Source: Escherichia coli (GTDB taxonomy: Bacteria; Pseudomonadota; Gammaproteobacteria; Enterobacterales; Enterobacteriaceae). Taken from it: a stretch of 64,000 nt of DNA. The notes below the pieces were generated by a model. It was not told where the DNA came from. It did no database searches and worked only from the letters and a program-made list of their open reading frames with translations. The position numbers were made by a program, and so were the translations under genes. Positions 6,461 through 49,148 of this stretch are shown here, in pieces. The stretch is taken from assembly GCF_003334785.1 (NCBI RefSeq), contig NZ_QOWV01000018.1. One strand, 5' to 3'. Position 1 is the first letter of the stretch. Each line of letters begins with the position of its first letter.

Positions 6461-7633
<1,173 letters not shown>

Positions 7634-7639
7634 CCACTT

Positions 7640-7822
<183 letters not shown>

Positions 7823-7884
7823 ATGGTTTGCCAGATACGTCATAGATCTAAATGCCACTGAATAACAGTTTAGTTGCCGTTCTT

Positions 7885-34087: not shown

Positions 34088-34852
34088 ATGGCGCATCAGC
34101 TACTCATTGGTAAAGGAATGATCACCTTGAATCTCAAACGGATTTTTCTCGCCCTCACCTTACTTCCCTTGTTTGCTGTTGCCGCTGATGATTGCGCACT
34201 CTCAGATCCGACGCTGACCGTACAGGCGTATACCGTTAATCCTCAAACAGAGCGGGTGAAAATGTACTGGCAAAAAGCCAATGGCGAAGCGTGGGGAACG
34301 TTACATGCTCTGCTGGCGGATATTAATAGTCAGGGTCAGGTGCAGATGGCGATGAACGGCGGCATCTATGATGAAAGCTATGCGCCGCTCGGTTTGTACA
34401 TCGAAAACGGTCAGCAGAAGGTGGCGTTAAATCTCGCTTCAGGTGAAGGGAATTTCTTTATCCGTCCTGGCGGCGTGTTTTATGTCGCGGGAGATAAAGT
34501 CGGCATCGTTCGTCTGGATGCCTTCAAAACCAGTAAAGAGATTCAGTTTGCGGTGCAGTCAGGGCCAATGTTGATGGAAAACGGTGTAATTAATCCGCGT
34601 ATTCATCCCAACGTCGCCTCAAGCAAAATTCGTAACGGTGTTGGGATTAATAAACATGGGAACGCCGTGTTTTTGTTGAGCCAGCAGGCAACAAATTTTT
34701 ATGATTTTGCCTGTTATGCCAAAGCGAAACTGAACGTTGAGCAGCTGCTTTATCTTGATGGCACGATTTCACATATGTATATGAAAGGCGGGGCAATCCC
34801 GTGGCAACGCTATCCTTTTGTCACCATGATTTCCGTCGAGCGGAAAGGTTAA
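34088..34852 (+). CDS. yigE: Secreted/periplasmic protein YigE (DUF2233), function unknown (254 aa)
   Basis: ORF 34088..34852; a hydrophobic signal-like segment LNLKRIFLALTLLPLFAVAADD near the N-terminus. Confidence 0.8.
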   Translation: MAHQLLIGKGMITLNLKRIFLALTLLPLFAVAADDCALSDPTLTVQAYTVNPQTERVKMYWQKANGEAWGTLHALLADINSQGQVQMAMNGGIYDESYAPLGLYIENGQQKVALNLASGEGNFFIRPGGVFYVAGDKVGIVRLDAFKTSKEIQFAVQSGPMLMENGVINPRIHPNVASSKIRNGVGINKHGNAVFLLSQQATNFYDFACYAKAKLNVEQLLYLDGTISHMYMKGGAIPWQRYPFVTMISVERKG

Positions 34853-34891
34853 AACGATAGTTTTGTGTCAGATACTGAAGATGGCGCAGAT

Positions 34892-34995
34892 GCCGGATGC
34901 GGCGTAAACGCCCTATCCGGCCTACATGACGTTGCAATTTATTGAATCTGAATGATTTTTTAGGCCAAATAAGGTGCGCAGCACCGCATCCGGCA
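34892..34995. repeat. RIP-type BIME: two inverted REPs flanking an IHF-like core
   Basis: gccggatgcggcgtaaacgccctatccggcctac (34892..34925), core gcaatttattgaat (34933..34946, approximating the IHF consensus), inverted REP taggccaaataaggtgcgcagcaccgcatccggca (34961..34995). Confidence 0.8.
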
Positions 34996-34998
34996 ACG

Positions 34999-37161
34999 TT
35001 ACACCGACTCCAGCCGGGCGTATGCCGCCACCAGCCATTTAATACCCTGGCCCTGAAATGCCACCTGCAAACGGCTATGCTCACCGCTGCCTTCCATATT
35101 GACAATGGTGCCTTCACCAAACTTAGCGTGGCGTACGCGCTGGCCGAGCTTGTAGCCGCTGTCGTTCTCGACCATCGGCGTACCCATCCGCTGATGGCTG
35201 ACCGGGCGGCTTACCGTGGCGCGCAGGCGCACCTCTTCCACACACTCTTCCGGCAGCTCGCCGATAAAGCGCGACGGGCGATGGTAAACCTCTTTACCAT
35301 ACAGACGGCGGGTTTCCGCGTAGGTCAGCGTCAGTTTCTGCATCGCGCGGGTTACGCCAACGTAGGCCAGACGGCGTTCTTCTTCCAGACGCCCGCCTTC
35401 ATCCAGCGACATCTGGCTTGGGAACATGCCCTCTTCCATACCAACGATAAACACCTGCGGGAACTCCAGGCCTTTCGCCGAGTGTAGCGTCATCAACTGC
35501 ACCGCATCCTGCCAGGTATCCGCCTGCCCTTCACCTGCTTCCAGTGCCGCATGGGAGAGGAACGCCTGCAGCGGCATTAAATCTTCGTCTTCTTCGTTGT
35601 AGCTGAACTGGCGCGTTGCCGTCACCAGTTCCTCTAAGTTTTCGATACGCGTCTGACCTTTTTCGCCCTTCTCCTGCTCATACATGGTACGCAGGCCGGA
35701 GTCTTTAATTACCCGGTCAGTCTGTACATGCAGCGGCATATCGGCAGTTTCCTGCGCTAAGGCGTCGATTAATTCCATAAATCGCTGCAAGGCGCTGGCA
35801 GCTCGCCCGGCGAGGGCTTTTTCCTGCAACAGCTCACGACATGCCTGCCAGAGTGTTAACTGGCGATCGCGCGATGTCTGACGTACCACGTCCAGCGTCC
35901 GGTCACCAATACCCCGCGTTGGCGTATTCACCACACGCTCAAAGGCCGCGTCGTCGTTGCGGTTGGCAATCAGGCGCAGATACGAGAGCGCATCTTTGAT
36001 TTCCTGGCGTTCGAAGAAGCGCATCCCGCCGTAAATACGGTACGGCATACTGGCCTGCAATAACGCCTCTTCGAGCACCCGCGACTGGGCGTTGCTGCGG
36101 TAGAGAATGGCGCACTCGGCAAGCGCTCCGCCGTTGTCCTGCCAGGTTTTGATGCGGTTAACCACAAAACGCGCTTCATCGAGTTCGTTAAAAGCGCAAT
36201 AGAGGGAAATAGGCTCACCGTCCGCGCCATCGGTCCACAGTTTTTTACCCAGACGCCCGTTATTGTTTTCAATCAGGGCGTTAGCGGCGCTCAGAATATT
36301 GCTGGTAGAGCGGTAGTTTTGCTCCAGACGAATAGTTTCGGCACCGGGGAAATCATTAAGGAAACGCTGAATATTCTCCACCTGCGCCCCGCGCCAGCCG
36401 TAGATTGACTGGTCGTCATCACCGACGATCATCACTTTGCCGGTGTCGCCCGCCAGCAGGCGGATCCACGCGTACTGAATGTTGTTGGTATCCTGGAATT
36501 CGTCCACCAGGATATTGGTAAAACGTTCGCGGTAGTGTTGCAGGATATGCGGCTTGTTAAGCCACAACTCGTGAGCGCGCAGCAGCAGCTCGGCGAAGTC
36601 CACCAGGCCCGCGCGGTCACACGCTTCCTGATACGCCTGATACACCTTCTGCCAGGTCTGCTCCACCGGATTACCGTAGCTTTGAATATGATGCGGACGC
36701 AGGCCTTCATCTTTCTGGCTGTTGATGTACCACATTGCCTGCCGCGGCGGCCACTGCTTCTCGTCGAGGTTCATGGCTTTGATCAGACGCTTAAGCAGGC
36801 GTAGCTGGTCTTCACTGTCGAGGATCTGGAAATCCTGCGGCAGATTGGCGTCCATATGGTGCGCACGCAGCAAACGGTGCGCCAGCCCGTGGAAGGTGCC
36901 GACCCACATACCGCCCTGGCTCGTGCCCATCAGTTGCCCGATACGATGACGCATCTCCGCCGCCGCTTTGTTGGTAAACGTCACCGCCATAATCGAGTAT
37001 GGCGAGCAGTTTTCCACGCTCATCAACCAGGCGATACGATGCACCAGTACGCGCGTCTTACCACTGCCCGCGCCCGCCAGCACCAGAAGGTTGCTGCGTG
37101 GCGCGGCCACCGCTTCGCGCTGTTTGTCATTAAGGCTGTCGAGCAGGTAAGAAACGTCCAT
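34999..37161 (-). CDS. uvrD: DNA helicase II UvrD (720 aa)
   Basis: The ORF track extends to 37350 (783 aa); the recognised N-terminus MDVSYLLDSLNDKQREAVAAPRSNLLVLAGAGSGKTRVL (Walker A) starts at the internal Met 37161, downstream of a LexA box. Confidence 0.94.
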   Translation of the reverse strand: MDVSYLLDSLNDKQREAVAAPRSNLLVLAGAGSGKTRVLVHRIAWLMSVENCSPYSIMAVTFTNKAAAEMRHRIGQLMGTSQGGMWVGTFHGLAHRLLRAHHMDANLPQDFQILDSEDQLRLLKRLIKAMNLDEKQWPPRQAMWYINSQKDEGLRPHHIQSYGNPVEQTWQKVYQAYQEACDRAGLVDFAELLLRAHELWLNKPHILQHYRERFTNILVDEFQDTNNIQYAWIRLLAGDTGKVMIVGDDDQSIYGWRGAQVENIQRFLNDFPGAETIRLEQNYRSTSNILSAANALIENNNGRLGKKLWTDGADGEPISLYCAFNELDEARFVVNRIKTWQDNGGALAECAILYRSNAQSRVLEEALLQASMPYRIYGGMRFFERQEIKDALSYLRLIANRNDDAAFERVVNTPTRGIGDRTLDVVRQTSRDRQLTLWQACRELLQEKALAGRAASALQRFMELIDALAQETADMPLHVQTDRVIKDSGLRTMYEQEKGEKGQTRIENLEELVTATRQFSYNEEDEDLMPLQAFLSHAALEAGEGQADTWQDAVQLMTLHSAKGLEFPQVFIVGMEEGMFPSQMSLDEGGRLEEERRLAYVGVTRAMQKLTLTYAETRRLYGKEVYHRPSRFIGELPEECVEEVRLRATVSRPVSHQRMGTPMVENDSGYKLGQRVRHAKFGEGTIVNMEGSGEHSRLQVAFQGQGIKWLVAAYARLESV

Positions 37162-37219
37162 TGGCACCGCCGCGTAAAAATAGGTTGGGCGGAGAAGCGC
37201 AACGCCCTCCGCCAAAAAG

Positions 37220-37235
37220 CTGGGTATATATACAG
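37220..37235 (-). promoter_or_regulatory. LexA (SOS) box in the uvrD promoter
   Basis: Minus strand reads CTGTATATATACCCAG (CTGT-N8-CCAG), about 60 bp upstream of the uvrD start; uvrD is a known SOS gene. Confidence 0.8.
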
Positions 37236-37244
37236 ATTTGCTGA

Positions 37245-37961
37245 TTATATCAGCGAGGTCAGAGATGCCAACCGGGAAATTTCCAGATGCGGCAGTAAAC
37301 GGCTGTCCCAGGTTTGCATCAGATCGCCATTTTCCGGTCTGATCCAACAAGCCTGCATTCCGCTGCGAATTGCCCCACCCACGTCAGTGGTGAGATCGTC
37401 CCCAACATGTAAGATCTCGCCGATCGGCACGTTGAGTTTTTCCGCAGCCAAAAAGTACATATCGCTGAACGGTTTTGAGCGCCCGTGCGGGCCAGCGCGC
37501 AGCACAAACTCAAAATAATCCCCCAAACCAAACAGCTCCGGCTGGGCGTTACCGTTGGTGATCGCCACCAGCGGCCATTTCTTCGCCAGCTGTTTTAAGG
37601 TGTCGTGAGTTTGCTGCGGGACGTCGATTCGGCTGCGCCATTTGGCAAAGTTGATCATTGCTGCGTGTGCGCCTGCACTGGCTTCTTCGGCACTCAGCCC
37701 GGCGTCGAGCATCGCTTGTTCAATCGAACGAAAACGCCAGCGCGTCACGTCGTGATAAATCTCGGGTTCCGCTTCCCGTACCGCCTGGCGCAGGCGTTGC
37801 AGATCTTCATTCTGGAAGCTGCGCAGCGCCGGATGATAATTTTGCACAAAGGTAAGCGCCTCTCGCTCGGTGCGCAAAATCACCGGACGGTTATCGTAAA
37901 GGGTATCATCCAGGTCAAAGGTGAGCGCCGAGATGCGCCCCAAAGGCCGGTAAAAACGCAT
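37245..37961 (-). CDS. yigB: HAD-family phosphatase YigB (238 aa)
   Basis: ORF 37245..37961; [24 protein letters not shown] (HAD motif I). Start overlaps the xerC stop by 1 nt. Confidence 0.88.
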
Positions 37962-38857
37962 TATTTCCCCCGTTTGGCGCGTGGATGCGCCGCATCGTAC
38001 ACCGAGGCAAGGTGTTGAAAATCAAGATGAGTATAGATTTGCGTGGTGGAGAGGTTGGCATGACCCAGCAGCTCCTGCACACCACGAAGATCGCCGCTCG
38101 ACTCCAGCATATGCGTGGCGAACGAGTGACGTAATTTATGCGGATGAACGTGATTATTCAGCCCTTGTTTTATGCCCCATTCGGCAAAGCGTTTCTGCAC
38201 ATTACGCGCGGAGATACGCTTGCCCAGTTTCGACAGAAAAAGCGCGTCGTCTTCGCTACCAAACAGGTCGCGCAAATCAAGCCAGTGCTCAATCCACGCC
38301 ACAGCGTTGCGACCAATCGGCAGGCGGCGCTCTTTGCTGCCTTTCCCCATAACCCACACTTCACCAGACTCCAGGTCGAGGTGTTTAATATCCAGCCCCA
38401 CCAGCTCAGAAAGACGCAGACCCGCGCCGTACATCACTTCCAGCATTGCACGGTCGCGTACAGCGAGGGGATCATTGATATCAATATCCAGCAGCCGATT
38501 CATATCGTCGACGTCGATGTTTTTCGGCAGATGACGCGGCGCTTTCGGTGCCGAAACACCTTTCGCCGGGTTAGCTTTGAGTTCGTTCTGGCTGACCAGC
38601 CAGTCAAAAAAGCTACGTAGCGCAGAAAGCCGTAACGCCAGACTTGCTGCTCCCAGCCCTTTACGGCGACTGCGTACAGCAAAATTGCGCACCATCGTCA
38701 CATCACATTGCTGCCAGCTTTGCAGGCCGTTTTCGCTGGCAAAATTGATGATCGCCTCAAGCTGACGCTGGTAGTTAAGCAGGGTTATCGGGCTAAGCTG
38801 GCGCTCCACGCTCAGATAACGTAGGTAGCGTTCTACATCGGTGTGTAAATCGGTCAT
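37961..38857 (-). CDS. xerC: Tyrosine site-specific recombinase XerC (298 aa)
   Basis: ORF 37961..38857; [40 protein letters not shown]...; conserved R..HxxR..Y catalytic residues near the C-terminus ([12 protein letters not shown]...IYTHL). Confidence 0.94.
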
Positions 38858-39561
38858 ACGCGTTCAATCCAACGCTCCAGAAGCTCCGGCAACATCAGCG
38901 CAATTTCATGAAGTAACTGCGTTCCTTGCCCTTGTTGATAGTGACTGGCATCGCGACTGGTAAACAGCACGACACCCAAATCAGCATCGCTTCCCAGCAT
39001 CGACATCGCCACCGATCCCACCGCTTTCGCTTCCGGTAGCACCACCAGCAGCTCTGGTCCGTTAAGCGGCCCAAGATAGTGCTGTTCCTGCCCCAAACGC
39101 TGAATACGCAGCGGTTCGAAAGACTGACGGCTTAATGCCAGATGAGTGTGGTTCGACGGCGCACCTAAGCGCCAGCGATCCGGAAACAGGCGCAGACTCG
39201 CACCTGCCAGGCCGAGATCGCGCGCCCAGCGGTGAAAGCGCATCAGCATATCGTCGAGACTGCTGGCGGCGGTGAGACTGCGCTGCAGGTAGAGTAGGCG
39301 ATAAAACAGGCCTTCGTTGGCGATAGCCTGTTCCATCAACAGCGCCATGTTCTCTTCCAGAACATGAATATGATTACGTGCGCGGGCCATGTGCCACTCG
39401 ACCAACGAAACGGTGCCGCGTACCGGATGCGGCACACGTATCGCTTCTACTGCGCGCGCATTACGGATAAAAAACTCAGGATTTTTAATCAGATAATCGA
39501 CAACCGCCCGGTCATCAAGCTCCGTGAGTGTTTCCTGCAGTTCTTCCCCTGGTTGCTTCAT
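38854..39561 (-). CDS. yigA: DUF484-family protein YigA (235 aa)
   Basis: ORF 38854..39561; 4-nt overlaps with dapF upstream and xerC downstream, consistent with the dapF-yigA-xerC-yigB operon. Confidence 0.85.
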
Positions 39562-40382
39562 AGATGAATAAATCCGTCGTAGACATGTACCGCCGGGCCA
39601 GTCATATATAACGGGTGACCCGGACCTTTCCAGGCGATATCAAGACGACCGCCGGGGAGTTCCACGCGTACTTCTTCGGCCAGCAAACCTTGCTGAATCC
39701 CTACTGCAACCGCCGCACACGCGCCGCTGCCGCAGGCCTGGGTTTCTCCTGCCCCACGCTCATAAACGCGTAAACGAATATGCTCGCGCTTAACCACTTG
39801 CATAAAACCGATATTGGCGCGCTCCGGAAAACGCTCGTGGCTTTCCAGAACAGGACCAAGCGTTTCTACCGCCGCGGTATCGACATCATCGACCTGAATC
39901 ACGCAATGCGGATTTCCCATCGACACCACGCCGCATAAGATTGTCTGCTCGGCGGCGCGCATAATATAGGTCTTTTCCGCTTTGTTAGCGCGAAACGGCA
40001 CGGCGGAAGGTTCGAAGTTGGGTTCGCCCATATTTACGCGGACCAGATCATCATCGGTGACGGTCAGAACCATCCGCCCGTTGGCGGTGCTGACGCGGAT
40101 ATCACGCTTATTGGTCAGTCCTTTCAGACGCACAAAACGGGCAAAGCAGCGCGCACCGTTGCCGCACTGCGCCACTTCACTGCCATCAGCATTGAAAATG
40201 CGATAGTGAAAATCCAGTTCAGGATCATACGGCGGCTCAACCACCAGCAGTTGGTCAAACCCTACCCCCAGGTGCCGATCAGCCAGGCGACGAATCAGCT
40301 CCGGTGAAAAAAAGACATTCTGCGTTACCGCGTCGACGACCATAAAATCGTTGCCAAGGCCATGCATTTTCGAGAACTGCAT
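39558..40382 (-). CDS. dapF: Diaminopimelate epimerase (274 aa)
   Basis: ORF 39558..40385 begins [20 protein letters not shown]; start taken at the second Met (40382). Catalytic cysteines in [16 protein letters not shown] and ACGSGACAA. Confidence 0.93.
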
Positions 40383-40418
40383 CATTTACTCCAATCACGC
40401 GGGTACAGAAACTGACTT

Positions 40419-40622
40419 TTAGTAATTCACCTGGGATGGACCATCGCCAGTGGCGCGATCGTTTTTATCCGGCACCGTGGATTGCGTTTGCGTCTCTACC
40501 GGTTTGGTCGGCGGCGGTGCGTTTTTATCTGCAGGCGGGAAATAGAGCGGACCTTTCAGACCGCAGCCCGTCAGGCTGAAGAGAGTAAGTAATACAGTGA
40601 GTGCCTTAAACACGTTTTTCAT
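40419..40622 (-). CDS. yifL: Small lipoprotein YifL (67 aa)
   Basis: ORF 40419..40622; MKNVFKALTVLLTLFSLTGCGLKGPLYFPP with a lipobox LTGC. Confidence 0.85.
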   Translation of the reverse strand: MKNVFKALTVLLTLFSLTGCGLKGPLYFPPADKNAPPPTKPVETQTQSTVPDKNDRATGDGPSQVNY

Positions 40623-41084
40623 TATGGATTGCCTGTAAAGTTCATCGCTTTCTGCTTTCTATCATCGCAGGAGAAGACGTAAAAGCAAGCGTTTAGCGAC
40701 TCTTTATGAAGTCTGAAAAGTGAGGAAATGCTGCGAGTATAACGCTTACTCGTGGGGATTTATGTTTTGCTGGTAGTTTCGTGATCGGCACCTCGCGCCA
40801 GGATGGCTTTATGCACTATCGCAATGTGGTTTGTTTGTTGTCTTTTTTAGTTCCGTCAGCGTGAGGATGCTCGCTCGGTAAACCTGATCATAATGTTTAC
40901 CAGAAACAGGGAAAGACGTGGTGTAACTGCGCCCTAATGAAGAGACAAATCTTTCGCTACACAGAGACATCATTATTCCGGTGACGGATGAATCGTGCCG
41001 GAACGCAGCCGCAGAGGTGCAAACTTTGAAGCCCTGACCCCATGCCGCTATACTGCCGCCATCACTTAAAAACAGGATACAACA

Positions 41085-41405
41085 ATGAACGACAGTGAAT
41101 TTCATCGCCTGGCTGATCAACTCTGGCTGACCATTGAAGAACGCCTGGACGACTGGGATGGCGACAGCGATATCGACTGCGAAATCAACGGCGGCGTACT
41201 GACCATTACCTTTGAGAATGGCAGCAAAATCATTATCAACCGCCAGGAGCCGCTGCACCAGGTATGGCTGGCAACCAAACAGGGCGGCTACCATTTTGAC
41301 CTGAAAGGCGATGAGTGGATTTGTGATCGCAGCGGCGAAACCTTCTGGGATTTGCTGGAACAGGCGGCGACGCAGCAGGCGGGTGAAACAGTCAGTTTCC
41401 GCTAA
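41085..41405 (+). CDS. cyaY: Frataxin homologue CyaY (106 aa)
   Basis: ORF 41085..41405; [71 protein letters not shown]. Confidence 0.94.
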
Positions 41406-41444
41406 GATTGCATGCCGGATAAGCCTCGCTTTCCGGCACGTTCA

Positions 41445-43991
41445 TCACGAAAAATATTGCTGTAATAGCGGCGTATCGTGATCCTGATTGGCAGGCGGCA
41501 TGTTACCGATAGATTTTGTGCGGAACGGAATCACCTGTTCACGACCATCAACCTTCACAATCTGATAGAACTGCGGCAGGTTGAAGTTGATGAAGCTTGA
41601 GCCGTAGGTAAAACGGTCATGCGATGACGAGTAGAAGCGACTGACGTCACGTACCAGCTCCTCTTTGCTGCCTTCGCAGTGGTGATATACCTCAACCCGG
41701 TTGCTTTCGTCGAGAATGTAGATATTAAAGCCATTCTCGTCTTGCGTTTCTTCGAAAAAGAACTGGATGATCCCTTCGCTGGCAAAGCCGTCCACCACCG
41801 CCGGTAATTTGACGTGATTGGTTTCAACCTGCACTGACAGGCCGTGCAGTTTGTTATGCGAAATCGCGCCATAAAACTCGATGGCGTTTTCCAGTTTCTG
41901 TACCGATACATTCAGGCGTTCGAAGAACAACCCCCAGGTTTGACCAGAAACGCGCAGCGCCTTGAAACGCCCGGTTTCCTGGCGGGTGCTGGAAAGACGC
42001 AATTCAATACACTCAGAAACCAGTTGCTGCACGCGAGTACGAATTAAGCCGCGCAGATGCTGGCTATAACAGAAGACTTCCACGCTATCTGGCGGTGCGG
42101 CGTCCTGATGCATTTTGCCGAGAATAGTTTTCAGGGCTTCGATCATCGATTGCTCGCCGTTGAAGTGCAGCGTACGCACTTCGTTCCACGAGTTGCGGTA
42201 CAGCAGGTCAACGCTACCTACCAGGCAATTTTGATTCTCGCCAAAGCTGAAGACATCCAGCTTACGGAAATCGAAATGCACCACCTGATTGCGGAACGCC
42301 GCTGTCGGGTCATATTCCAGGTTAACGATAATCGCCAGATGGCGGATCTCACACGGGCTGTAGAGCGCCTTCGGTGTCGGTGCAGGTAAGCGCAGCGGGA
42401 AATGGTGCGACACGTCGGCGACCATCTCCTGCAACTTAGGCAAATCGACAATGCCGTTACCTTTAATATACAAACGGGTGCGCGAGGTCAGCAGGCCGTT
42501 AAACCATGCCCACGCCACCAGTTTATTCAGGTAACGGTTATATTCCAGCGGCTGATGGCTGATGATCGACTCAATATTTGGCGCGCGGTTATACAGATAC
42601 CAACCTGAACGGTTAGCCCGGCCCGGCGGCACATAAATAAAGGTCAGATTCGGTTCCGAGAGATCGGGTGAAATCTGCGGGTTTACCAGCGTCACTTTAC
42701 CTGGTAATGCTTCAAACGCGGCATACAGCTTACGCGTCAGCACGCCGATATCCTGCGGACTGGCGGAGACGCTAAGGTTATTGCGACGCGCAAAGCGGAT
42801 CAGATTACGGTAGCTCTGCATCATCGCGTCGAGCAACTCGTTGTGCGCCTCACGCACCTGATCAATCTTCCAGTTAGCGCGGTTATCGAGCATTGCCAGA
42901 CGAGCTTCGTCCCAACCCCACTCGCTCACTAACTGGCTCAACACTGCGCGACGCCAGCCTACGCAGGCGCGTTCACGGCTGAGCTTTTCGCACACTTTTA
43001 AATAGAAGCAGCGACGTACTAAATCCAGACGGGTAAAATCTTCAATCGCCGTCAGGTATTCAGTAACACGCTCCAGCATCATGCAGTATGGATCGAGACC
43101 AAACGATACAATCTCGCCGTCGTGCAAACGCTGTTTGATATCTTTCGCCAGCAGACGTGGGTTCGGGTATTCCCAGGAATAGGCTTCCAGCAGCAGTGTT
43201 TTCAGTACCGCTTTGTATGGGGAATCGATACTCTTGTAGAGCTGCCAAAGGCTGGCACCAAAGTACTCTTCAGCAGAAAGCGAGCTTAAGCCACCGAGAT
43301 CCAGCCATTCATTTGGCGTCAGCACGCCCTGCGCGTAAAGCGTCATCACATAGTCGTCGTAATGCTCTTCTTCGTCGCACGGCACCATATTCCACAGAAT
43401 ACGCTTACCGGCGAGACGCACGGCGGTACGATAAAATTCGTCAAGCAGCAGTATATGCTGGGTGGAGCCACAATCTTCGCCCCCCAGGCTGCCGCTTTCA
43501 TTATGACGGAAGCGGTTTTCATCAATCAGGAAGAAGCTGACTTCCACACCCAGCGAGGCGGCCCAGTTTTCCAGCAGGCTACATTTACGTTGTAGCAATT
43601 GGCGCTCTTCGCTATCGAGCCAGGATTGATGACAGACCCAGATATCCAGGTCAGAGGAACAACTTTGCCCTACGGACGAGGTGCTGCCCATGGTGTATAC
43701 ACCAGTAATTGGAAGCTCACCTTTCGGCGGATCCTGTACTGACATTCCACGATACAGTTCAAGCTCGTTCAGGTAGTGGCGTTGAGTTTCATCAGGCGTG
43801 TAAAGGCAAATGCCTTTGGGAACGTTACCATCAAGGTAACCCGGCATTAGCGGATGGTGATAGTGCAACAATGTCGGCAGTAGACTGTAGACCTGTTGGA
43901 ATGCAGGCCCCATAGCAGCAAGCGCGCGATCCACACGCAATTGATTTATGGCATCCAGTCTCTGTTTCAGAGTCTCAATATAGAGGTACAA
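41445..43991 (-). CDS. cyaA: Adenylate cyclase, class I (848 aa), TTG start
   Basis: ORF 41445..43991; [39 protein letters not shown]... The codon at 43989..43991 is caa on the plus strand, i.e. TTG on the minus strand. Confidence 0.94.
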
Positions 43992-44377
43992 GACGTATCG
44001 CCTGATTTGCTACCCGTCATGACTGTGATTCCGCCAACATCAACGGTAACACGCGGCATTCGGGATATTTCGTATGTCAAAGGTAACCGTTACCACTTTT
44101 CGCGCCTGGTTTTTTTAGTTTCACGACGAAAAAATGGTCTAAAACGTGATCAATTTAACACCTTGCTGATTGACCGTAAAGAAAGATGCGCTACATACAA
44201 GTGTAGCACCGTTTATTCTCTGTAAATTCCTTATTACAACGGCGTGAAACGCCTGTCAGGATCCACTGCCAGACCTCATTTTACGGTTTGCGCAGGCGTC
44301 TACGTTTCACCACAACACTGACATCACTCTGGCAAGGATGTTAGGATGGACCACGGATGATAATGACGGTAACAAGC

Positions 44378-45319
44378 ATGTTAGACAATGTTTTAAGAAT
44401 TGCCACACGCCAAAGCCCACTTGCACTCTGGCAGGCACACTATGTCAAAGACAAGTTGATGGCGAGCCATCCGGGCCTGGTCGTTGAACTGGTACCGATG
44501 GTGACGCGCGGCGATGTGATTCTTGATACGCCGCTGGCGAAAGTAGGCGGAAAAGGCTTATTTGTAAAAGAGCTGGAAGTCGCGCTCCTCGAAAATCGCG
44601 CCGATATCGCCGTACACTCAATGAAAGATGTGCCGGTTGAATTCCCGCAAGGTCTGGGACTGGTCACTATTTGTGAGCGTGAAGATCCTCGCGATGCCTT
44701 TGTGTCCAATAACTATGACAGTCTGGATGCGTTACCGGCAGGCAGTATCGTCGGGACGTCCAGTTTACGTCGCCAGTGCCAACTGGCTGAACGCCGTCCG
44801 GATCTGATTATCCGCTCCCTGCGCGGCAACGTCGGCACTCGCCTGAGCAAACTGGATAACGGCGAATACGATGCCATCATTCTTGCCGTAGCCGGACTAA
44901 AACGTTTAGGTCTGGAGTCACGTATTCGCGCCGCGTTGCCACCCGAGATTTCTCTTCCGGCGGTAGGACAAGGTGCGGTGGGTATTGAATGCCGCCTTGA
45001 TGATTCACGCACTCGCGAGCTGCTTGCCGCGCTGAATCACCACGAAACTGCACTGCGCGTTACCGCAGAACGCGCCATGAATACCCGTCTCGAAGGCGGA
45101 TGTCAGGTGCCAATTGGTAGCTACGCCGAGCTTATTGATGGCGAAATCTGGCTGCGTGCGCTGGTCGGCGCGCCGGACGGTTCGCAGATTATTCGCGGTG
45201 AACGCCGCGGTGCGCCGCAAGATGCCGAACAAATGGGGATTTCGCTGGCAGAAGAGCTACTGAATAACGGCGCGCGCGAGATCCTCGCTGAAGTCTATAA
45301 CGGAGACGCCCCGGCATGA
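44378..45319 (+). CDS. hemC: Porphobilinogen deaminase / hydroxymethylbilane synthase (313 aa)
   Basis: The ORF track opens at 44357; the recognised start is [34 protein letters not shown] at 44378. Confidence 0.93.
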
Positions 45320-46056
45320 GTATCCTTGTCACCCGCCCGTCTCCCGCTGGAGAAGAGTTAGTGAGCCGTCTGCGCACACTGGGGCAGGTGGCCTGGCATT
45401 TTCCGCTGATTGAGTTTTCTCCGGGTCAACAATTACCGCAACTTGCTGATCAACTGGCAGCGCTGGGGGAGAGCGATCTGTTGTTTGCCCTCTCGCAACA
45501 CGCGGTTGCTTTTGCCCAATCACAGCTGCATCAGCAAGATCGTAAATGGCCCCGACTACCTGATTATTTCGCCATTGGACGCACCACCGCACTGGCACTA
45601 CATACCGTAAGCGGACAGAAGATTCTCTACCCGCAGGATCGGGAAATCAGCGAAGTCTTGCTACAATTACCTGAATTACAAAATATTGCGGGCAAACGTG
45701 CGCTGATATTACGTGGCAATGGTGGTCGTGAGCTAATTGGGGATGCCCTGACGGCGCGCGGTGCTGAGGTCACTTTTTGTGAATGTTATCAACGATGCGC
45801 AATCCATTACGATGGTGCAGAAGAAGCGATGCGCTGGCAAGCCCGCGAGGTGACGATGGTCGTTGTTACCAGCGGTGAAATGTTGCAGCAACTCTGGTCG
45901 CTGATCCCACAATGGTATCGTGAGCACTGGTTACTACACTGTCGACTATTGGTCGTCAGTGAGCGTTTGGCGAAACTCGCCCGGGAACTGGGCTGGCAAG
46001 ACATTAAGGTCGCCGATAACGCTGACAACGATGCGCTTTTACGGGCATTACAATAA
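45316..46056 (+). CDS. hemD: Uroporphyrinogen-III synthase (246 aa)
   Basis: ORF 45316..46056; 4-nt overlap with the hemC stop; [34 protein letters not shown]. Confidence 0.92.
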
Positions 46057-46077
46057 CTCTCATAACAGGAAGCCATA

Positions 46078-47271
46078 ATGACGGAACAAGAAAAAACCTC
46101 CGCCGTGGTTGAAGAGACCAGGGAGGCCGTGGACACCACGTCACAACCTGTCGCAACAGAAAAAAAGAGTAAGAACAATACCGCATTGATTCTCAGCGCG
46201 GTGGCTATCGCTATTGCTCTGGCGGCGGGCATCGGTTTGTATGGCTGGGGTAAACAACAGGCCGTCAATCAGACCGCCACCAGCGATGCCCTGGCTAACC
46301 AACTGACGGCATTGCAAAAAGCCCAGGAGAGCCAAAAAGCCGAGCTGGAAGGCATTATTAAGCAACAAGCTGCACAACTTAAGCAGGCGAATCGTCAGCA
46401 AGAAACGCTGGCAAAACAGTTGGATGAAGTCCAACAAAAGGTCGCCACCATTTCCGGCAGCGATGCTAAAACCTGGCTGCTGGCTCAGGCCGATTTTCTG
46501 GTGAAACTCGCCGGACGGAAGCTGTGGAGCGATCAGGACGTCACGACCGCTGCAGCGTTGCTGAAAAGTGCAGACGCCAGCCTGGCGGATATGAATGACC
46601 CGAGTCTGATTACCGTTCGTCGGGCAATTACCGATGATATCGCCAGCCTTTCTGCAGTATCGCAGGTGGATTATGACGGCATAATCCTTAAGCTTAATCA
46701 GCTTTCAAATCAGGTAGATAACCTGCGTCTGGCCGATAATGACAGCGATGGTTCGCCGATGGATTCAGACGGTGAAGAGCTTTCCAGTTCCATCAGCGAA
46801 TGGCGTATCAATCTGCAAAAAAGCTGGCAGAACTTTATGGACAACTTCATTACGATTCGCCGTCGTGATGACACCGCCGTACCGCTGTTAGCGCCAAATC
46901 AGGATATCTATCTGCGCGAAAATATTCGCTCTCGCCTGCTGGTCGCAGCACAAGCTGTACCGCGTCACCAGGAAGAGACTTATCGCCAGGCGCTGGAGAA
47001 CGTCTCCACCTGGGTACGTGCTTACTACGATACTGATGATGCCACCACCAAAGCGTTCCTCGACGAGGTGGACCAGTTAAGCCAGCAAAATATCTCGATG
47101 GATCTTCCGGAAACCCTGCAAAGCCAGGCGATGCTGGAAAAACTGATGCAGACTCGCGTGCGTAACCTGCTGGCACAACCGGCAGCGGGGACAACGGAAG
47201 CTAAACCTGCACCTGCACCTGCACCTGCACCGCAAGCTGATACTCCGGCAGCCGCGCCGCAAGGAGAATAA
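46078..47271 (+). CDS. hemX: HemX, membrane-anchored coiled-coil protein (397 aa here)
   Basis: ORF 46078..47271; N-terminal transmembrane segment, coiled-coil region, C-terminal Pro-Ala-rich tail containing the (CCTGCA)4 repeat. Confidence 0.9.
47206..47229 (+). repeat. Perfect hexanucleotide tandem repeat (CCTGCA)x4 inside hemX, encoding (Pro-Ala)4
   Basis: cctgca cctgca cctgca cctgca at 47206..47229, in frame, followed by ccg; protein reads [11 protein letters not shown]. Confidence 0.9.
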
Positions 47272-47273
47272 CC

Positions 47274-48470
47274 ATGCTAAAAGTGTTATTGCTCTTTGTG
47301 TTGCTGATTGCGGGGATCGTGGTTGGCCCGATGATTGCCGGCCATCAGGGTTATGTGCTGATCCAGACCGACAACTACAATATCGAAACCAGCGTCACGG
47401 GCCTGGCGATCATATTGATTCTGGCGATGGTAGTGCTGTTTGCCATTGAGTGGCTACTGCGGCGGATCTTCCGCACTGGCGCGCACACCCGTGGGTGGTT
47501 TGTCGGACGTAAGCGTCGCCGTGCACGTAAGCAGACCGAACAGGCGCTGCTGAAACTGGCGGAAGGCGATTATCAGCAAGTTGAAAAGCTGATGGCGAAA
47601 AATGCCGATCACGCGGAACAACCGGTGGTGAACTATCTACTGGCTGCCGAAGCCGCGCAACAACGTGGTGATGAAGCACGCGCCAACCAACATCTGGAAC
47701 GCGCAGCGGAGCTGGCCGGCAACGACACCATTCCGGTAGAAATCACCCGCGTACGTCTGCAACTGGCCCGTAATGAAAACCATGCTGCACGCCACGGCGT
47801 GGATAAGCTGCTGGAAGTTACGCCACGCCATCCGGAAGTATTACGTCTGGCGGAACAGGCGTATATCCGCACAGGTGCATGGAGTTCGCTGCTGGATATT
47901 ATCCCATCAATGGCGAAAGCCCATGTTGGTGATGAAGAACATCGTGCAATGCTGGAACAACAGGCATGGATTGGCCTGATGGATCAGGCGCGTGCCGATA
48001 ACGGTAGCGAAGGTTTGCGTAACTGGTGGAAAAACCAAAGCCGGAAAACGCGTCATCAGGTAGCGTTGCAGGTGGCAATGGCGGAACATCTTATTGAATG
48101 TGACGATCATGATACTGCCCAGCAAATTATCATCGATGGCCTGAAACGCCAGTACGACGATCGCCTACTGCTGCCGATTCCTCGACTGAAAACAAACAAT
48201 CCGGAACAGCTGGAAAAAGTGCTGCGCCAGCAAATCAAAAACGTCGGCGATCGCCCGCTGTTGTGGAGCACACTGGGCCAGTCACTGATGAAGCACGGAG
48301 AATGGCAGGAAGCATCGCTCGCCTTCCGCGCAGCGCTGAAACAACGTCCGGACGCCTACGATTACGCATGGCTTGCCGACGCGCTGGACAGACTGCACAA
48401 GCCGGAAGAAGCTGCAGCGATGCGTCGCGACGGTTTGATGTTAACGTTGCAGAATAACCCGCCACAGTAG
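47274..48470 (+). CDS. hemY: HemY, TPR-containing inner membrane protein (398 aa)
   Basis: ORF 47274..48470; starts 2 nt after the hemX stop; MLKVLLLFVLLIAGIVVGPMIAGHQGYVLIQTDNYNIETSVTGLAIILI. Confidence 0.92.
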   Translation: MLKVLLLFVLLIAGIVVGPMIAGHQGYVLIQTDNYNIETSVTGLAIILILAMVVLFAIEWLLRRIFRTGAHTRGWFVGRKRRRARKQTEQALLKLAEGDYQQVEKLMAKNADHAEQPVVNYLLAAEAAQQRGDEARANQHLERAAELAGNDTIPVEITRVRLQLARNENHAARHGVDKLLEVTPRHPEVLRLAEQAYIRTGAWSSLLDIIPSMAKAHVGDEEHRAMLEQQAWIGLMDQARADNGSEGLRNWWKNQSRKTRHQVALQVAMAEHLIECDDHDTAQQIIIDGLKRQYDDRLLLPIPRLKTNNPEQLEKVLRQQIKNVGDRPLLWSTLGQSLMKHGEWQEASLAFRAALKQRPDAYDYAWLADALDRLHKPEEAAAMRRDGLMLTLQNNPPQ

Positions 48471-48517
48471 TTCCTTCTCACCCGGAGGCAAGCACCTCCG
48501 GGGCCTTCCTGATACAT

Positions 48518-48724
48518 AAAAAAACGCCTGCTCTTATTACGGAGCAGGCGTTAAAACAGGTCTGTATGACAACAAGTGGGTGCTTCACTCAACGTTGTGT
48601 CCATGGTGTCTGATGAGGCATAAGCGACATCTGTCAGTGGACGATAAGCACCGTAAACGGCTCTGCGTCATTCCGGAGTTTATGAGGCACTAAGGCGAAC
48701 ATAAGAGATGGAATGAGCATCTAC
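48518..48724 (-). ncRNA. glmZ: GlmZ small RNA (SraJ/RyiA), post-transcriptional activator of glmS
   Basis: Minus strand reads GUAGAUGCUCAUUCCAUCUCUUAUGUUCGCCUUAGUGCCUCAUAAACUCCGGAAUGACGCAGAGCCG...CAUACAGACCUGUUUUAACGCCUGCUCCGUAAUAAGAGCAGGCGUUUUUUU, which I recognise as GlmZ. It ends in an intrinsic terminator (hairpin gcctgctc-cgtaataa-gagcaggc plus U7), has a -10-like CATAAT just upstream (plus 48731..48736), and sits in the known hemY-aslA intergenic location. Confidence 0.88.
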
Positions 48725-49148
48725 TCGTTTATTATGCCACAGAGAATCGGGAAATAACATCCCTTAACACTTGTTATGAGATAATTCTGTAATCCTCTTT
48801 GCTTCCTGAGTAATAACTTCCTGAGTGAATATTTAACCTGAGCTTGATCCTACACATACTTATTATGAATGATAAAATTCATTCAATTAATAACACATAT
48901 ATTAATTGCCGTTAAAACTAAAAACAGCATCAATAATCAACGCGATATAATAAACCTGCCTTACATATCAACTGCGCCAGAGGTAGGATTGAAAACGCTC
49001 TCCTGATTTTCCAATTCATTTTCTGGATAAATAAATAATTTATTTTTGTCACTATTATTTATGTAATCATCCTGTCAGGGAGAGGGATCTCAATTATCAA
49101 TGCTTAATTACGTCATCATTTTGATGACATGAAACCGGAGCATTTTGC

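Follow-up and report, generated by a model that had tools for sequence, protein, structure and literature searches.

A polymorphic RIP-type repeat between the convergent yigE and uvrD genes of Escherichia coli

The intergenic region between the convergent genes yigE and uvrD contains an inverted repeat whose core recurs between aslA and aslB in the same 64-kb stretch of Escherichia coli DNA (hereafter the window). This raises the question of what kind of element it is, whether the common core signifies a particular relationship between the two copies, and what, if anything, the repeat does for uvrD. A prior sequence-only reading had called it a RIP-type repeat with an IHF-like core and proposed that it may stabilise the 3′ end of the uvrD mRNA or insulate the two genes from one another. 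Taken as a whole, we consider it likely that the element is a single-copy, mosaic member of the RIP/RIB/BIME-1 repeats that probably binds IHF, would act at the RNA level through its hairpins, and belongs to an allele that probably arose by deletion.

Anatomy and family of the uvrD and asl elements

The yigE-uvrD intergenic region is 146 nt long (34853–34998). The yigE gene (34088–34852, plus strand; stop codon at 34850–34852) ends 38 nt before the element, and uvrD approaches from the other side on the minus strand with its TAA stop codon at 34999–35001; the two genes are therefore convergent, as had been read from the sequence. Around the element the locus is 100% identical to K-12-like E. 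coli genomes, in reversed orientation with respect to MG1655. The element corresponds to MG1655 positions 4,000,149–4,000,253 (NC_000913.3), and the aslB-aslA intergenic region to 3,984,194–3,984,351. The RefSeq record of MG1655 has no repeat features annotated at the yigE-uvrD site; the K-12 GenBank record presumably annotates RIP elements. Between the uvrD and aslA stops, the window is 12 nt longer than NC_000913.3 (34999 + 4,000,145 versus 50804 + 3,984,352) and therefore differs from MG1655 somewhere in 35002–49148.

The element consists of two inverted REPs and a 34-nt linker and occupies positions 34891–34995. We name REPs y or z following Ton-Hoang 2012 (PMC3333891). The yigE-side REP (34891–34925, plus strand, TGCCGGATGCGGCGTAAACGCCCTATCCGGCCTAC) is of the y type, as judged from its sequence, a REP head search, its stem arms (34892–34905 and 34908–34921) and RNA folding; its minus strand has the 5′ GTAG that is conserved among REPs, and its stem is bulged. 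The uvrD-side REP (34960–34995, minus strand, TTAGGCCAAATAAGGTGCGCAGCACCGCATCCGGCA, which reads TGCCGGATGCGGTGCTGCGCACCTTATTTGGCCTAA on the minus strand) was recognized from its sequence, the head search and its stem arms as a degenerate y-type REP, with TTAG for GTAG, GGCCAAAT for GGCCGGAT, and a GGTGC/GCACC stem for GGCG/CGCC. The REP heads lie at 34892 (+) and 34994 (−), and the outer REP arms (34891–34902 and 34984–34995) are complementary at all 12 of 12 positions, in addition to the internal stem of each REP, which bears out the description of two inverted REPs around a 14-nt core. Three bases (34996–34998) separate the element from the uvrD stop codon, and the first paired base of the hairpin falls 4 nt past it, in agreement with the 4 nt given in the sequence-only reading. 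Between the REPs, the L linker of the BIME-1/RIP family (34926–34959) comprises a 7-nt spacer, an 18-nt core (TGCAATTTATTGAATCTG) and a 9-nt spacer that, in this copy, terminates in a T6/A6 run.

The second element (50832–50937) is located between the likewise convergent aslA (stop codon at 50802–50804) and aslB (stop codon at 50963–50965), 27 and 25 nt from the respective stops. A sequence and head search places a z2-like REP with a CCGGAT head (TGCCGGATGCGATGCTGACGCATCTTATCCAGCCTAC) on the aslA side (50832–50868, plus strand), followed by the L linker (50869–50902; core TGCAATTTATTGAATTTG at 50876–50893) and by a canonical, inverted y-type REP (GTAGGCCGGATAAGGCGTTTACGCCGCATCCGGCA; 50903–50937, minus strand) on the aslB side. 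Both the uvrD and asl intergenic regions hold one unit each, with no tandem array. Elsewhere in the window, a BIME-2 array of two units (7638–7826), in which y REPs alternate with inverted z2 REPs across short linkers and the L motif is missing, directly follows an open reading frame ending in TAA at about 7631–7633.

RIP and RIB are names for the same unit as BIME-1. RIP (repetitive IHF-binding palindromic) elements were reportedly described by Oppenheim et al. in 1993, the RIB name is said to come from Boccard and Prentki in the same year (EMBO J 12:5019), and BIME-1 is said to be due to Gilson, Bachellier and Hofnung. The REPs of E. coli are divided into types y, z1 and z2; in a BIME-1, which is a single unit, one z1 and one y are inverted relative to each other and flank a long and well-conserved L linker that often contains an IHF site, and in BIME-2s, z2 and y are repeated in tandem with short linkers between them (PMC3333891).

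Both elements in the window clearly belong to the RIP/RIB/BIME-1 family, which has been known since 1993. Like its other members, they contain inverted REPs around a linker of about 34 nt with a TGCAAT(A/T)TATTGAAT core that bears the IHF consensus, and they occur as single extragenic units at the 3′ ends of transcription units. The inverted REPs and the conserved L linker thus justify the RIP-type name given in the sequence-only reading. The elements are built from the same REP units as BIME-2 (y and z2, with short S linkers), but BIME-2 is tandem, lacks the L linker and the IHF motif, and has a documented association with gyrase. The REP composition also departs from the z1 + y known for the family: it is y-L-y′ at uvrD, where the second y is the degenerate one, and z2-like-L-y at asl. 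On the corresponding side, 57 sampled family copies among the matches listed carry nearly always z1, with one z2 (L019) and one other CCGGAT-type REP (L051). Further differences are a left spacer of 7 nt (8 nt in the family) and the absence of flanking inverted motifs in the window copies. Both copies count as BIME-1-like chimeras in the strict Bachellier/Ton-Hoang scheme, while under the RIP definition they are members.

The family sample was obtained by scanning one genome per species for TGCAATNTATTGAATNTG, which matched at least 120 loci; the scan demanded fixed core positions, so the conservation of those positions cannot be read from the sample. At least 55 of the loci are associated with REPs and derive from E. 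albertii, one E. coli strain, and Pseudocitrobacter, and the other 65 listed are scattered chance matches in unrelated organisms, without REPs. Neither yigE nor uvrD was found in the fetched E. albertii or Pseudocitrobacter family loci. Among the matches listed, the typical unit comprises a z1 REP (TGCCTGATGCGCTACGCTTATCAGGCCTAC), 8 nt, the core TGCAATATATTGAATTTG, 9 nt, and an inverted y REP (GTAGGCCGGATAAGGCGTTyACGCCGCATCCGGCA); the 8-nt and 9-nt spacing around the core is the commonest (34 of the 45 copies in which both spacers are measurable), and a loose pattern match finds extra inverted flanking motifs in about half of the sampled copies. The uvrD linker contains the 18-nt core and the 9-nt right spacer of the family, with a left spacer of 7 rather than 8 nt, and has a median identity of 74% to 43 measurable family copies of other genomes among the matches listed. 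When a 45-nt probe was used to locate L regions, the median E. coli genome had 11 such places and K-12-like genomes about 19.

The shared core and the IHF motif

The 14-mer GCAATTTATTGAAT occurs exactly at 34934–34947 and 50877–50890, on the plus strand in both cases, so the recurrence of an identical core between aslA and aslB, as claimed from the sequence, is exact. There is no third exact copy in the 64-kb window; allowing up to two mismatches yields four matches (0.70 expected), and no further L motif appears in the window even with three mismatches. Alignment of the two elements, a check that had been proposed together with the claim, covers about 140 nt, with a mean column identity of 82%. 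By our own count, their full linkers are 76% identical, compared to a median of 0.74–0.80 for random family pairs, and each window linker has closer relatives in other genomes (0.83–0.85 among the matches listed). We therefore ruled out that the uvrD and asl elements are sister copies, as their overall linker identity is no closer than that of random family pairs. Among the matches listed, they alone share the 7-nt left spacer, which ends in ACGY.

Of the 57 sampled copies among the matches listed, 42 have A at the variable core position, 8 have T, 5 have G and 2 have C. The exact GCAATTTATTGAAT is the T variant, a minority form that recurs independently in E. albertii and Pseudocitrobacter. 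The shared 14-mer belongs to the L linker that the whole family conserves, and it therefore indicates no special uvrD-asl kinship; of the original claim, the identity of the two cores stands but the link between the two loci does not.

A similar division applies to the claim that the core approximates the IHF consensus. Compared to WATCAANNNNTTR, the minus-strand sequence ATTCAATAAATTG (34935–34947; also 50878–50890) matches at eight of the nine specified positions, but matches of this quality number 47 in the window against 46.4 expected from shuffles, and the resemblance alone therefore proves nothing. The single mismatch is also present in the family consensus ATTCAATATATTG, and the A-to-T difference of the window copies is situated in the NNNN spacer, which the IHF consensus leaves unspecified. 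An A6 run is located 8 nt upstream of the match on the same (minus) strand. This may resemble the layout of the H′ site of lambda attP (A6, 8 nt and a 13-nt core): the minus strand here reads AAAAAA-TCATTCAG-ATTCAATAAATTG, although the window core has T rather than A at consensus position 2.

BIMEs have been cited as IHF-binding sites (PMC3184786). Because the family is reported to bind IHF, the window copies should do so as well, and family membership together with the published work on the family indicates that IHF probably binds the linker of the uvrD copy. At the DNA level, IHF would then bind and bend the L linker between the two REPs. Full-text literature searches returned nothing useful on IHF binding or transcript ends at the yigE-uvrD locus, and the RepRanger supplements contain no mention of uvrD, yigE, aslA or aslB.

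Strain polymorphism and origin of the K-12-type allele

Occupancy of the site was surveyed in 5426 complete E. coli genomes, a comparison across strains that the sequence-only reading had proposed. The site proved strongly polymorphic: 3012 genomes have the contiguous, K-12-type yigE-element-uvrD arrangement and exactly 2414 have a gene-bearing one, which together account for all 5426. The element with its L linker is present in 2974 genomes (about 55%), leaving 45% in which the L linker is absent at the uvrD site. A third spacer allele, represented by strain LR-46 (L126, 164–287), joins the same y REP to a short linker of different sequence (CCAAGAGCCATTTCTGAAT), lacks L and has its proximal REP truncated; it occurs in at most 38 of the 5426 genomes (3012 minus 2974). 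Since 45% of genomes have no L linker here, and up to 38 have neither L nor the stop-proximal REP, any role of the IHF site must be dispensable. The asl site is polymorphic as well, with the K-12 type in 2260 of 5426 genomes (at least 80% of window positions 50740–51010 covered); in other genomes, the match there begins at the linker or else stops at the left REP.

The alternative uvrD allele contains a 903-nt gene encoding 300 amino acids and a single, perfectly palindromic REP between yigE and uvrD; BL21 carries this gene and K-12 does not. In three gene-bearing loci the gene is located at 244–1146 (L002), 277–1179 (L003) and 272–1174 (L004), at the site corresponding to window positions 34853–34890. 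It is annotated as a SAM hydrolase or SAM-dependent halogenase (Pfam PF01887 and PF20257, equivalent to DUF62). A probable relic of its 3′ end (last codons, stop codon and 6 nt) is found at 34876–34889, directly beside the element. Of the 14 nt upstream of the left REP head, 11 match the gene allele in the EC21Z-083 and LR-46 haplotypes and 8 match in the window; the best of 115 other REP heads reaches 8 of 14. The segment is common to the Helicobacter pylori orthologue and is therefore part of the gene, and the REP head and the GATGCC junction are identical in both alleles. Because this relic of the gene adjoins the element, we infer an origin by deletion; the comparison suggests that a gene-bearing ancestor gave rise to the RIP allele through deletion and REP remodelling, and that the K-12 state is derived. 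The event would be a REP-associated polymorphism in which the DUF62 gene was probably deleted and the neighbouring REP remodelled. Homology of the first 24 nt of the yigE-side flank to the interior of the DUF62 gene was also considered; it is marginal, with 37–59 of 1000 shuffles scoring as well, and was dropped.

Outside Escherichia and Shigella, the closest relatives of the DUF62 gene are found in H. pylori and H. acinonychis, at 90.7% protein and 84.6% nucleotide identity to the E. coli gene. The homology extends 26 nt upstream of the start codon and 6 nt beyond the stop codon. In H. pylori, the gene lies in a normal chromosomal context near uvrA and rsmH, with a G+C content of 42.9% against 36% in its flanks (47.2% for the gene in E. 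coli). The gene looks like one that was transferred between phyla, in either direction.

Two haplotypes of the K-12-type arrangement (K-12-type and EC21Z-083-type) differ at 1 of 106 positions in the element and at 6 of 37 in the 37-nt flank (Fisher p = 0.0012). Five of the six flank differences are clustered in a 12-nt patch beside the REP head (34877–34888), which suggests one templated event rather than separate point mutations. The pattern of divergence is compatible with constraint acting on the element or with a templated alteration of the flank; instead of selection, recent spread or gene conversion may explain why the element has diverged so little.

RNA hairpins and candidate roles at the uvrD 3′ end

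In RNA of the uvrD sense, the uvrD-side REP forms 13 pairs (−17.4 kcal/mol), starting 4 nt past the UAA; RNA of the opposite sense forms 8 pairs (−12.0 kcal/mol) and loses the lower stem. That stem is kept in the uvrD sense alone, since the GG-to-AA changes give G-U pairs there and A-C mismatches in the other strand. The yigE-side REP folds alike on both strands (−21.1 kcal/mol for plus and −21.4 for minus). In a transcript of the whole element, the two REPs can pair in one long stem; its folding energy is −56.9 kcal/mol (z = −6.3) for uvrD-sense RNA and −54.6 kcal/mol (z = −4.1) for yigE-sense RNA. In each of three gene-type genomes examined, the perfectly palindromic REP is found 4 or 14 nt past the uvrD stop, with folding energies of −27 to −30 kcal/mol. 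The stop-proximal hairpin is kept in both major alleles, and the IHF linker is allele-specific.

Published work describes REP hairpins as a block to exonucleases that protects transcripts, and as a mark of the 3′ ends left by Rho termination (PMC6061677). When a REP lies less than 16 nt from a stop codon, the gene upstream of it is translated less (Liang, Rudd and Deutscher 2015, as cited in PMC12306157). By this 15-nt measure the uvrD copy is close enough (3 nt from the stop, with its stem from the fifth nt) and the asl copy is not; the uvrD hairpin, 4 nt past the stop, thus resembles the stop-proximal REPs of Liang 2015 (Mol Cell 58:431), as far as these are described in the citing paper. 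At the RNA level, each of the convergent transcripts would end in or cross a REP hairpin. The uvrD-side hairpin would most likely block 3′-to-5′ exonucleases and so set and stabilise the uvrD mRNA 3′ end, and, being within 15 nt of the stop codon, it may disturb termination and lower UvrD synthesis, as for other stop-proximal REPs. The earlier proposal of a 3′ mRNA stabiliser is accordingly retained as a candidate role, one that fits the stability of the hairpin, its 4-nt distance from the stop and its presence in both alleles. The most likely working part for uvrD is, as a candidate, the stop-proximal RNA hairpin. We single it out because it is kept in both major alleles and because its substitutions preserve pairing in uvrD-sense RNA only; the hairpin, rather than the IHF site, is the part worth testing.

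An alternative, which we regard as possible though unlikely, is that the element is a functionally neutral relic, a decaying, non-autonomous REP/BIME at a deletion scar that persists since its removal brings no benefit. Its presence in only 2974 of 5426 genomes, the rest being otherwise arranged, is consistent with this, as are the polymorphism of the asl site, the adjoining relic of a deleted gene, and the atypical composition of the element. In particular, the GTAG needed by the REP-associated transposase (PMC3333891) is replaced with TTAG in the uvrD-side REP; mobilisation by this transposase (the RAYT, TnpA-REP) would call for GTAG 5′ of an imperfect palindrome, and the yigE-side REP has, on the minus strand, GTAG and a bulged stem. 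However, divergence is far lower in the element than in its 37-nt flank, pairing survives the substitutions of the proximal REP in one RNA sense, that of uvrD, and the hairpin beside the stop is retained by both major alleles.

The proposed insulator has no support beyond the location of the element between convergent genes. A more specific form of the idea makes the element a DNA gyrase site, or topological insulator, where positive supercoils arising between the two genes would be absorbed, as for other BIMEs. Both REPs are of the y type, which is preferentially cleaved by gyrase, but the reported enrichment of cleavage concerns BIME-2 arrays, and sites occupied by IHF are negatively associated with cleavage sites (PMC6379681). 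As the uvrD element is a single unit with an L linker, unlike the BIME-2 array at 7638–7826, we consider a gyrase-based role very unlikely.

Still less probable is a bidirectional intrinsic (Rho-independent) terminator for yigE and uvrD, despite strong hairpins on both strands at the ends of convergent genes: no U run follows either REP, the sole T6/A6 run is part of the linker, some 30 nt beyond the yigE-side hairpin, and the one terminator-like match (34985–34973, minus strand; 1.1 expected) takes as its tail the descending arm of the REP stem. Having no hairpin followed by a U run, the intrinsic terminator was rejected.

Equally remote, in our judgement, is a REP-derived small RNA resembling naRNA4 or ES036, for which there are Rfam matches on the minus strand at 34867–34922 (naRNA4, RF02564; 44.8 bits) and 34918–34959 (ES036, RF02751; 19.5 bits), but these score below the gathering thresholds of 59.5 and 37.6 bits, respectively, reflect shared REP and L sequence rather than full-length similarity, and are accompanied by no promoter-like site within the element. 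At asl, the minus strand of the linker (50875–50896) is identical to ES036 positions 7–28 and scores 30.0 bits, also below the gathering threshold, and the ES036 consensus contains the exact GCAATTTATTGAAT. The ES036 family appears to have been built on the RIP linker of another locus. The model of ES036 (the CssrF sRNA) pairs UGCAA with UUGCA as a small hairpin, a pairing that is absent from the uvrD copy.

The preferred reading thus remains that of a mosaic RIP/RIB/BIME-1 repeat with a probable IHF site and a stop-proximal RNA hairpin. The element class is textbook E. coli repeat biology, and no new kind of element is involved. The case shows that resemblance to the IHF consensus has, on its own, no statistical weight. 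It also identifies the yigE-uvrD site as a sharp two-state polymorphism, with 3012 genomes of the K-12 type and 2414 with the gene. A speculative extension, to which we give little credence at present, is that the uvrD alleles (the RIP with an IHF site and a hairpin of −17 kcal/mol, the palindrome of −27 to −30 kcal/mol with the gene, and the rare form with no stop-proximal hairpin) set different UvrD levels via REP-dependent control of both termination and mRNA stability. If this were true, part of the variation in repair-helicase dosage among E. coli lineages would trace to a repeat polymorphism.
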